NCBI RefSeq assembly: GCF_045037415.1
Contig: NZ_CP173440.1
Length of the DNA: 64,000 bases
Strand: one strand, 5' to 3'
DNA from: Escherichia coli
GTDB taxonomy: Bacteria > Pseudomonadota > Gammaproteobacteria > Enterobacterales > Enterobacteriaceae
In this document: positions 46,801 to 49,800 of the stretch, piece after piece
Layout: the number at the start of each line of letters is the position of its first letter
How positions within the stretch are numbered: the first letter of the stretch is position 1
Made by a program: the position numbers

Positions 46801-49800
46801 AGTTTTTCCTGAATCCAACTGAGCTTTAATTGGTGCCGGGGTACGACCCTGACCTGTCCAAGTTTTTTGCTCACCAGCTTCGTCTATATAAGCATATTTC
46901 GCCGGACGAGGTTCACGCTTTTTTCGTACTTTAATGTTAACGGCCGCGTCCATCAGTTCATTCGGATCTATACCATCAGCGATTATCATTTCCCGGTACT
47001 GAGAGAGTTTTTCTAAACGCTCTCGATTAGCTGCTTCGGCCGCCTTTTCTTCTTCACTGCGTTCAGTGACTACAACAGTGAACTTTTCTAATACTTCTTC
47101 GAGCACTTCTAATGGCAGCTCTCGTGCCTGAGCGCGAAGTGTACGGATGTTATTGAGAACCTGTAATGTCTCGCTCATAGTTACCTCTTTAAGCACATTG
47201 TTATGCAGTTACATAACAACATTAAATTAATTAAAAATTTTCAGCAAGTGGCTTCGCAAGTTAAATTATTTCAATCGAAAAACATCTTAAAAAGGAATAG
47301 CTCTCATGCTGATTCTATCTTCCTTAGACAGGATACTTCCCAGTTTGTAAATTCACAATCTTGAAAAAAACACCTCAAAAAATCTGTCTCTTTGGTTATG
47401 AATTAATCGTTGAATTCAATGTAAAGAGGTGTTGTAATTGTAAAAGTCACCAGGCAAATAATCAATACAATTTAGTTCGATATAGTGAAGATCTAAATGT
47501 CATTCCTTATGTATTTATTTATTCGCTTTGCGCCATTGACGTGGTTCAATCGAGTTCGGGTCCGACCACAGACCTTTACCTGCATTGCGAGCGTTCTGCT
47601 CAAGAGTCCCATATTCAGGTACAGTTAATCGACCCTGATAGCGATATGCCCAGGCCATGCCTTCTGCAACCATGATGGAATTAATATCCTGGCTTTTAAG
47701 ATAGATTGTACCAAGCATACGTCCATAGGCGTCCTGCCCATGGTCCTGAATATTTACAATCTGGTTTGCGACCAACTGGATCATTGTCTGCTTAGCCTTC
47801 TGCCCGAAGGCTTGCTTACTTTCAGGGGCATCAATTCCATAGAGCCGTATTCTTGTATTTATTGCACCGTCATAAGCCTGTACAGTATCACCATCAATTA
47901 CTCTGACAACTTTTGCCGAGAAAGTTTTGGCAATTGAAGTCAGCGGTGTTGTTAAAAGAAAAACAGCCAGCGGGAAAATGGCTAACTTGGTCATCCGGAT
48001 GTTTATCATTGGTTGTCTCTGGGTGATAATCATAAAATGTGAGTTGAGGGTGAAATCACAACGATTTTGAAAATTTACTTTCAAAGTATTTGTTACTTTA
48101 TTAACTACATGCTATTGTGTCAATGTATATGAAAATTATTGCCAGAGGTGAATGACAACGCATCTCAGCTCAGTAAAGGGGGGGGGATGTCGACTGTTAA
48201 TGATGTGATTATATCTTTTGGGGATGACAGTAAAAGGTACTCAAGAGACTTCCAGACAAAAGACGAATTTAAAAAGAGCTGGTACGCAGTTTTGTCCCGG
48301 GCGCATGCTTCTGTAGAAGCTAAGGTTAGCTGCTCGTGTAAAGGCAAAGGACAGAAATCACTTTCCGTAAAATATAACTCTGGCGGTGATACTTATTTCT
48401 TGGCACGGTACCCAAATACGGGTAGTCAACATTCTCCCGACTCATGTATTTAATTGTAGGTGCATACCCTTCAACACCTCAGGTGATGAAAAATATAAAA
48501 ATGACATCAGATGCTCTGAAGAAAAAGGAGAGTTTGATTTGTCTCAATGTTCTATCGAAATACAACCCTGAAAAACATTCGAATACATCAAAACGACTTC
48601 CTGTCAAGTTCTTTTCTGGTGTTCTGATCGTGCTGATGAATACTGATAACTGGGCATCACTGGAGAAGAGATTCAGCTCTGAAATAGCAAATTGGCGTTC
48701 AGGAGGCAACGTCATCTGTATTGCTATAGGCGAGCTAGGTAAATTTAAGGGGAATGATATATACTATCTTAAAACACTTCAGATTGCTTTGATGAATGTT
48801 GATGATAACTAGATCCCGGCAGACTCGAGCTATGAACTGACCATGCTAAATTATCTTCATAAGCATGAGCGATCATTTATAAAACCTCTGAGATATGATG
48901 CTTCTAATAATGATGTATTCCCGGATTTCTGCCTGACGGATATAGGGAGTACTGAACTTTTTCCTATTGAGGTATTTGGTATGGATACTGCTTCATATTT
49001 GGCACGTAAGGTGATCAAAGAAAGTTACTATAATGAACGATATGGAAAGGATGGTTGGGCTTCATGGGAAGCACCGGCTGGCCCCCTCCCCATCTGCCCG
49101 ATAAGGCCAGCAGTTAACTACCAAATGCTTCTGTAAGGGCTTCGGCCCTATTAAAAATATCAGCCATTTTTTAACACATAGTAATAGAATCCGATTCAAA
49201 GTGATTCTCACATGGTCTCAGAAAGTAACTTTTTTAGGTTAATCTTTGTTATAGAGCTATTAAACCATAACTTCTGAAAATATCTTTTATTCTTATCTTT
49301 CAGTTATCATAATGACTTTTTAGATTAAGCCCCTAGTTTGAATGTGTTTGTTTGAAAAAATATTTTATAAAACATATTATGGTTAATTATTTGGTTGATG
49401 TTTTATTTCAAACATATCTACTTTACTCCTGCATGGATAGGTCTGCACATCTTGCCGCAAGATCATAAAATAAAAGTACAATTATGCGTTCTATTGAAAA
49501 CAGGACCTGATATCATGGACGATTCCACTCCCCTGCTCGTTCCCCCAACCAAAAGATAAAAGTAACTTTTGAGGCTTAAAGGGTTTCATCCCTGATGTTC
49601 TTCATCCAGCGATTTTAATACTGCCCCATTAACCGGACAGAAATCATCCGAATATTTTCTTTTACATTGCCGCGCGCTACGTGAAATCTGACGTACTCAC
49701 CCCTCCGATTTTCTTCAGATTTCGCGTAGCGCAACCTGGGCGGAAACCACTCGAAAAGTAACTTTTGGACAGATTTAGAAGCCGGTTACCCCCACTATTG

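Follow-up and report, generated by a model that had tools for sequence, protein, structure and literature searches.

The 64,000-nucleotide stretch of Escherichia coli DNA analyzed here (NCBI RefSeq assembly GCF_045037415.1, contig NZ_CP173440.1), hereafter the window, contains several copies of a perfect 13-bp palindrome, AAAAGTWACTTTT, that is extremely enriched in the backbone of IncHI-type plasmids. The site is symmetric, restricted to backbone DNA and conserved among the plasmids of this family. Judged from its sequence and distribution, it would be an operator or loading site, dispersed over the plasmid, for a backbone protein that binds as a symmetric dimer, most plausibly one or both of two orphan ParB-like helix-turn-helix (HTH) proteins, here called B1 and B2, and the probability that we assign to this reading is roughly 0.5. 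As for its parts, the motif is very probably an operator to which a factor encoded by the backbone binds, and the naming of B1 and/or B2 as the binder is tentative.

A pattern search of the window returned six exact copies of AAAAGTWACTTTT, starting at positions 1443, 2130, 2769, 49558, 49754 and 55352. In dinucleotide-shuffled versions of the window, 0.01 exact copies are expected, and 0.14 with at most one mismatch; the observed count was reached by no shuffle. The copy at 1443..1455 (AAAAGTTACTTTT) lies within the coding sequence of a DEAD/DEAH helicase, and the copy at 2130..2142 (AAAAGTTACTTTT) overlaps the stop codon of a lytic transglycosylase gene (2141-2755, minus strand). The copy at 2769..2781 (AAAAGTAACTTTT) is located between the divergent genes for the lytic transglycosylase and a DsbC-like protein, 14 bp upstream of the transglycosylase ATG, with its center 114 bp upstream of the DsbC-like ATG. 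The copies at 49558..49570 and 49754..49766 (both AAAAGTAACTTTT) are found in a non-coding block at the start of the leading region, the former at its left border, and they are preceded by a 12/13 copy (GAAAGTAACTTTT) at 49221..49233, which is 85 bp 3' of a DUF1173 gene. Sigma-70 promoter and terminator scans at the copies in the window gave nothing that exceeded the shuffle background.

The original prediction, made from the window alone, had listed the six exact copies and the 12/13 copy at 49221 and had judged their recurrence to be beyond chance, and the search bears this out, except that one copy had been placed at 49569-49581 and is actually at 49558-49570. It had also noted that two copies (2130 and 2769) bracket the transglycosylase gene, that three copies lie within the non-coding stretch 49137-50520, and that the zinc island and the GC-rich operons of the window have none, all of which holds. 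Two weaker copies had been suggested near 3713 and 51850. The first is a true member of the set, since it has the full core (3714..3726, CAAAGTTACTTTC, 11/11 core positions with two outer bases differing, in the hypothetical coding sequence 3634-3945) and belongs to the 92 core copies described below, whereas the second (51847, AACAGTAACTTTG) has two mismatches and is unconvincing. Finally, the flanks had been described as unrelated, which is correct for the copies generally but not for the one at 55352..55364. This copy is placed in a truncated cas6/dinG remnant that is a 96.8% duplicate of the cas6/dinG region of the plasmid, and, being a paralog of the copy in the intact dinG gene (plasmid position 29157), it is not an independent occurrence. 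The duplicated segment spans window positions 54156-56276 and corresponds at 96.8% identity to part of the intact system at 28.2-30.4 kb of the plasmid.

The counts for the whole replicon were made on plasmid phvKpST147_NDM1_1659 of Klebsiella pneumoniae (NZ_CP072810.1, 350,476 bp), with which the window is collinear at 99.99% identity, window position 1 corresponding to record position 69,422; plasmid positions refer to this record. This conjugative IncHI1B/IncFIB hybrid encodes a MOBH relaxase, and its cargo includes rmpA, aerobactin genes and NDM-1. The replicon contains 38 exact copies with A or T at the center, 45 exact copies with any center base, 80 copies with at most one mismatch and 92 copies of the core AAAGT-N-ACTTT. 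In an unbiased count of all palindromes, the motif was far in front, and the runners-up, with at most 22 copies, were the CRISPR repeat and the centromere repeat. The full core is present in 92 of the 159 AGTNACT heptamers, with A or G at the outer position, and the commonest variant across the plasmid has G at the outer position, as in the copy at 49221. The center base is A in 40 of the core copies and T in 39, a near-equality that is expected of a symmetric dimer without a preferred orientation.

The IncHI backbone (180 kb) holds 84 core copies versus the 0.4 that a third-order Markov model of this DNA predicts. The remaining 170 kb with the accessory islands holds 8, with the zinc, aerobactin and resistance islands free of the motif. 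Enrichment over the rest of the replicon and in relatives had been set beforehand as the check on the original prediction, and both were found (for the relatives, see below). DNA not annotated as coding makes up 24.5% of the plasmid but holds 52 of the 92 copies (57%), a share that is somewhat overestimated because the gene table is incomplete. An explanation of the recurrence as a functionless by-product of AT-richness, codon usage or hidden paralogy is effectively refuted. Some of the intragenic copies do encode K-V-T-F, or K-K-L-L in N-terminal signal peptides, and the copy at 55352 and the pair at plasmid positions 65372 and 67791 are paralogous duplicates, but the excess of 84 copies over 0.4, the unrelated flanks, the enrichment in non-coding DNA, the conservation of copies where the flanks cannot be aligned and the presence of the same motif in plasmids without DNA-level similarity all speak against it. 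The copies at 65372 and 67791 are contained in a duplicated segment of about 60 bp (gttgtttatgYgctgcacaggYccgGAAAGTTACTTTTtt) before two different genes, which represents a local duplication of a regulatory segment.

Across the backbone, the density is roughly one copy per 2-4 kb. Clusters are located upstream of the traL/E/K/B operon (four copies), in the region beside mobI (oriT) (two copies), in the divergent region between an htdA-like gene and a Z-type operon (two copies) and within 900 bp upstream of the gene at plasmid position 22138, which encodes B2 (six copies), and copies precede each of the large Ig-like genes. About ten copies have their centers 107-117 bp ahead of a start codon. 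A module of the motif, 25 bp, TTGATG, 17 bp and TATCCT is common to several copies, and in this geometry the -35-like hexamer of a sigma-70-like promoter follows the site at a distance of about 25 bp. Other copies are located 14-50 bp from start codons, in short intergenic gaps, over stop codons, at gene 3' ends or within genes. At 7.9, 14.5, 22.0 and 65.6 kb of the plasmid, unrelated small genes are preceded by the motif, 21-25 bp, (G)GGG(G/C)TTGATG, 17 bp and TATCCTGG, which suggests that the promoter-like module is a promoter cassette used repeatedly in that part of the backbone which holds the leading region. Upstream of mobI (plasmid 55.70-55.96 kb), there is a second family of short repeats, AAAAGTACTAATGAAA / TTAGTACTTTTT, with at least six copies in 250 bp; these repeats adjoin two copies of the main motif and are probably related to oriT or the relaxosome.

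The position of many copies about 25 bp upstream of -35-like hexamers is typical of an activator site, and the motif could accordingly be the operator of another regulator of the backbone, such as the TrhR/TrhY activator pair, its antagonist HtdA or an uncharacterized small backbone protein, which we hold to be rather unlikely. TrhR, TrhY and HtdA all have orthologs on this plasmid, and TrhY contains a conserved four-cysteine zinc ribbon. In the IncHI1 plasmid R27, the HtdA-TrhR/TrhY circuit, which is conserved among IncHI plasmids, controls most plasmid genes (139 of 181 expressed genes; PMC7366339), so that a plasmid-wide regulon exists, and since that study describes no DNA target for the circuit, the motif is an obvious candidate. 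Copies are indeed found upstream of AC-type and H-type operons in both R27 and this plasmid. A target box for TrhR/TrhY-HtdA should, however, occur at the promoters of F, H, AC and Z and would not be needed at R. With the R27 operons assigned from PMC7366339 and the record annotation, the TrhR/TrhY-dependent F and Z operons lack an upstream copy (the best match has three mismatches), while H/R and AC have it, and the region of the R operon, which is reported to be HtdA-independent, contains exact copies; the motif is probably not such a box. Furthermore, the copies (46-92 per plasmid) far outnumber the operons, and 43% of them are intragenic, with many at the 3' ends of genes. TrhR, TrhY and HtdA match no DNA-binding family, and each is only about 30% identical between plasmids. 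A search with Pfam and NCBIfam of about 30 proteins that are encoded near motif clusters or conserved with R27 revealed no DNA-binding domain except in the ParB-like proteins.

The motif is present in all relatives to which the comparison was extended. R27 contains 46 core copies, 26 of which have the full 13-mer, versus 0.37 expected, and the core is its top over-represented palindrome. An IncHI1 locus and an IncHI2 locus of about 40 kb each contain nine and ten copies, respectively, again with the core as the top palindrome, and three more distant metagenomic or genomic loci, reached via protein homologs, contain two copies in 4 kb, six in 21 kb and three in 5 kb; the core leads the palindromes in these three as well. 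The proteins of the metagenomic relatives that carry the motif are 30-50% identical to those of this plasmid, and the R27 orthologs are mostly 25-65% identical, which makes the conservation of the motif far higher than that of the surrounding DNA. We sought a relative with an altered motif and found the same motif in every relative examined, down to 32-38% protein identity.

Individual copies are also retained in closer relatives. The 49754 copy is present in all six relatives of 78-92% identity even as the flanks diverge, with the center changed from A to T in one relative and a T-to-C change in another, and the 49558 copy is kept in four of these six. A segment of about 400 bp with the 49221 copy is absent from some relatives or differs there. 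In a Raoultella plasmid with an overall identity of 79%, the copies at 1443, 2130 and 2769 are all in place. The first of these is exact, and the 13-mer at 2130 is also exact despite intergenic surroundings that cannot be aligned (37% identity, many indels); the equivalent of the 2769 copy is AAAAGTTACTTTG, with the center changed from A to T and one edge base changed. The homology between the Raoultella plasmid and the window starts again exactly at the 2130 copy (window 1874-2142), and in plasmid KP617, an indel of about 400 bp relative to window positions 49150-49570 stops at the center of the 49558 copy. These edges may represent the footprint of selection on the site or recombination at the motif.

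In the latter case, the site would be a recombination or module-boundary sequence, that is, the target of a recombinase or homing endonuclease or a hotspot of module exchange. The exact bracketing of the lytic transglycosylase gene by two copies would agree with this, as would the many copies placed precisely at gene boundaries and the several HNH endonucleases and the tyrosine recombinase encoded by the backbones. On the other hand, a functional site kept in fast-diverging non-coding DNA would leave similar edges, the copies are stable at corresponding places between relatives, many are found in conserved genes without signs of rearrangement, and neither a target-site duplication nor a cassette structure was seen. 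We regard recombination as a highly improbable explanation of the motif.

The constancy of the motif could also mean that the binder is a chromosomal protein of the Enterobacteriaceae that has been recruited by the IncHI plasmids, for example, a nucleoid-associated protein or global regulator. A slowly evolving host protein would more easily account for a site that has stayed constant while the plasmid proteins diverged, and the expression of IncHI genes depends on H-NS, Hha and cyclic AMP of the host (PMC7366339). Nevertheless, the 170 kb that includes the accessory islands contains much chromosome-like Klebsiella DNA and has only the 8 copies mentioned above. Nor was any enterobacterial chromosome retrieved when 185,579 representative genomes were scanned for paired copies with a spacing of 10-40 bp; the matches were confined to unrelated AT-rich genomes. 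We know of no enterobacterial regulator with the consensus of the motif, although we take this as a lead only. No description of the motif was found in the papers that could be searched; a literature search with the motif sequence returned nothing relevant, and the motif is absent from the text of a paper on the IncHI Ig-like protein. A host factor is in our view improbable.

The candidates that we favor as binders are the two orphan ParB-like proteins, both encoded outside the window. B1 (WP_004196657.1; 392 amino acids; plasmid 304460-305638) is encoded beside the control region of a pilus operon. It matches the TIGR00180 parB_part family (E = 7e-8) and the Spo0J structure 6sdk (E = 0.02), and its score of 22.2 bits against Pfam HTH_ParB compares with a cut-off of 22.6. 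B2 (WP_004197197.1; 413 amino acids; plasmid 22138-23379) is encoded directly after the cluster of six copies and is a paralog of B1, with a BLASTP match (E = 9e-30) across the ParB N-terminal domain and the HTH; its orthologs in R27 and the IncHI2 plasmids score above the Pfam HTH_ParB cut-off. Both proteins retain the GxxRxRA signature in the N-terminal domain, and neither has a ParA partner. The canonical ParB of the plasmid is already tied to its own array of 66-bp repeats. The orthologs of B1 have a copy 12-129 bp upstream, and the B2 orthologs of R27 and IncHI2 have two copies each, at matching positions about 100 and 227 bp from the ATG. R27 encodes orphan ParB-HTH paralogs at 92336-93541 and 45191-46348, with WP_001281654.1 as the counterpart of B1 and WP_000108722.1 as that of B2, and such genes are labeled 'hypothetical' or 'DNA-binding protein' in the records. 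Homologs of B1 and B2 were found in about 2,400 plasmids of PLSDB, among them IncC plasmids, in which the homolog is an orphan ParB-like gene located at about 25 kb.

Several observations weigh against B1 and B2 as binders, or against the entire reading as an operator. Between the IncHI1B, IncHI1 and IncHI2 plasmids, the putative recognition helix of B1 varies strongly, while the motif is constant, which weakens the case for B1 as the only binder; B2 retains a His-x-Arg pattern at the recognition helix. KorB, a ParB-family protein, reads its operator largely via residues outside the HTH, and the argument from the divergence of the recognition helix is for this reason not strong either way. At least two plasmids, pA708-IMP (predicted to be conjugative) and pIncHI1B-1502320 (predicted to be non-mobilizable), seem to lack B2, as tblastn searches with B2 retrieved only B1, and yet their loci contain 21-23 copies per 40 kb, which weakens the case for B2 as the only binder. 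AlphaFold modeled B1 with low confidence (predicted local distance difference test score of 55), and B1 and B2 are 33-36% identical to their R27 counterparts and are no better conserved than the average backbone protein. Moreover, an invariant motif across divergent plasmids would also suit a host factor, and about 43% of the copies are located in coding DNA, of which some may be codon by-products of the K-V-T-F and K-K-L-L kind.

If the orphan ParB-like proteins, or another dimeric protein of the backbone, do bind the motif, a symmetric dimer would occupy the 13-mer, and the dispersed copies would let the binder act at many promoters and along operons. The sites would then be where a regulator or architectural protein that acts on the whole plasmid docks or is loaded, by analogy with the KorB operators of IncP-1 plasmids or parS of IncC plasmids. 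This could occur either in the manner of a classical operator-bound regulator or by loading of a ParB-type clamp at the sites, followed by spreading or sliding as in KorB. Such a binder would coordinate the expression of transfer, leading-region and maintenance genes across an AT-rich backbone that is silenced by H-NS. A site upstream of the -35 hexamer would fit activation, anti-silencing of DNA bound by H-NS or repression at a distance, and the data do not decide the sign. A broader and more speculative possibility, which we consider somewhat unlikely, is that the HI1, HI2 and HI1B/HI3 plasmids, the present-day hypervirulent and carbapenem-resistant hybrids of Klebsiella among them, are organized by a ParA-less, ParB/KorB-like clamp, with two paralogs of which one is encoded in the leading region, that loads at 50-90 AAAAGTWACTTTT sites and sets silencing or anti-silencing across the plasmid. 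This clamp would be the missing DNA-level part of the thermoregulated control of transfer by H-NS, HtdA and TrhRY.

The original prediction of an operator for a dimeric regulator encoded by the backbone is supported as far as computation reaches, with protein binding as its inferred part. It had also proposed a partition or centromere-type protein. The motif is not the centromere of the ParAB system, which was rejected because parA is preceded by 41 copies of a separate 66-bp repeat and 3.4 more follow parB, and near parB there is only one copy of the motif, a 12/13 match; the two orphan ParB-HTH proteins in the backbone are, on the other hand, the best candidates for the binder. The 66-bp repeats are located at plasmid positions 310240-312922 and 316193-316414, and each contains the inverted repeat AACAACCCCGTTGTT. 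The array is probably the centromere of the canonical ParAB, with a design like that of sopC in the F plasmid. At the equivalent position, R27 has an unannotated gap of 3.1 kb.

Two further explanations of the motif were rejected. An intrinsic terminator or RNA hairpin does not agree with the A/T-rich stem and the loop of one nucleotide, the terminator scan was blank at the copies, and no Rfam family matched the 48.8-50.6 kb region. An element like the repetitive extragenic palindromic sequences or miniature inverted-repeat transposable elements, or a longer repeat of another kind, is contradicted by the unrelated flanks at nearly all copies. The claim that the motif is a discrete site and not part of a longer dispersed repeat is upheld, in that it is symmetric, enriched in intergenic DNA and kept where the flanks diverge.

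The non-coding stretch at 49137-50520 is the start of the leading region, which is truncated by IS1 at 50521 in the window. In intact relatives, the DUF1173 gene is followed first by about 1 kb of non-coding DNA and then by a gene for a protein of 200 amino acids and psiA. Synteny and alignment delimit a conserved non-coding block at 49555..49990, which holds the 49558 and 49754 copies. Within the block, an imperfect inverted repeat, GCGCTACGTGAAATCTGA...TCAGATTTCGCGTAGCGC, at 49630-49790 is predicted to form a long, irregular hairpin in single-stranded DNA. The single-strand fold of the plus strand of the block has a z-score of -4.7, and the 49754 copy is part of a stem in the predicted hairpin. 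The block may be a single-strand promoter or initiation element, similar to Frpo or ssi, for early expression of the leading region. A search of 48.8-50.6 kb against Rfam gave no family match, and a self-BLAST of the 49.1-50.5 kb region gave no paralog. At 50522-51843, IS1 adjoins a shortened rmpA gene (an open reading frame of 196 amino acids), and about 2.5 kb beside IS1 with peg-344, rmpC and rmpD that is present in NZ_CP072810.1 is missing from the window.

In Salmonella Typhi, E. coli and Enterobacter, plasmids of the IncHI type carry multidrug resistance, and IncHI1B hybrids in Klebsiella join hypervirulence (rmpA, aerobactin) to the NDM carbapenemase. A single global control that depends on temperature governs the transfer of IncHI-type plasmids and most of their genes, and we found no description of its DNA targets. 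An invariant site with 46-92 copies per plasmid would provide a handle on the master regulator and a map of its regulon, and interference with the site or its protein would be a way to test for destabilization or silencing of the plasmid. In hybrid plasmids, the motif also marks IncHI backbone DNA as a simple sequence signature.

The operators of KorB are among the closest known systems. The KorB operator OB of the IncP-1 plasmids RK2/RP4 is TTTAGCSGCTAAA, and its copies fall into classes that are located in promoters, distant from promoters and within genes. Like the motif, they are perfect 13-bp palindromes with a single central base and many dispersed copies in the backbone of a plasmid that encodes ParB-HTH proteins. 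They differ in sequence and number (12 versus 46-92 copies), and the candidate binders of the IncHI motif are ParA-less, partition being served by a separate ParAB with its own 66-bp centromere. In RK2, KorB is a ParB-family protein that acts as a global repressor (PMC11790492, PMC13584720) and has dispersed 13-bp operators (PMC11790492).

The partition sites of the IncC plasmids show a similar spread. ParB of IncC binds 12-14 palindromes that are scattered over the backbone, four of them in open reading frames and some just upstream of the activator boxes of transfer promoters, as demonstrated by electrophoretic mobility shift assays (PMC10954446). The IncA/IncC parS sites, with the core TTTCACATGTGAAA, resemble the IncHI motif in being palindromes that are distributed over a conserved backbone and are mostly intergenic, and the IncC plasmids are conjugative MOBH plasmids related to IncHI. 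However, the IncC site is 22 bp long, has 12-14 copies and another sequence and is bound by the partition ParB of a parAB operon. The IncC homolog of B1 and B2 is a different protein, encoded by the orphan ParB-like gene at about 25 kb and distinct from the ParB that binds parS in IncC. In one 6.6-kb IncC locus, no copy of the IncHI motif was found.

The HtdA-TrhR/TrhY circuit belongs to the same plasmid family and likewise exerts plasmid-wide control, but the motif fails to track its dependent operons in R27 (F and Z without, R with a copy). VirB, encoded on the virulence plasmid of Shigella, is an orphan ParB-like protein without a role in partition that counteracts silencing by H-NS on an AT-rich plasmid via parS-like palindromes. 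The IncHI backbones are similarly silenced by H-NS and Hha and carry hns and hha genes themselves. A handful of sites suffices for VirB, in contrast to the many copies of the IncHI motif, and a role of the IncHI proteins against H-NS would be by analogy only. Taken together, the motif joins a class of plasmid-wide palindromic operators that includes the KorB operators and the IncC parS sites, within which its copy number is unusually high.

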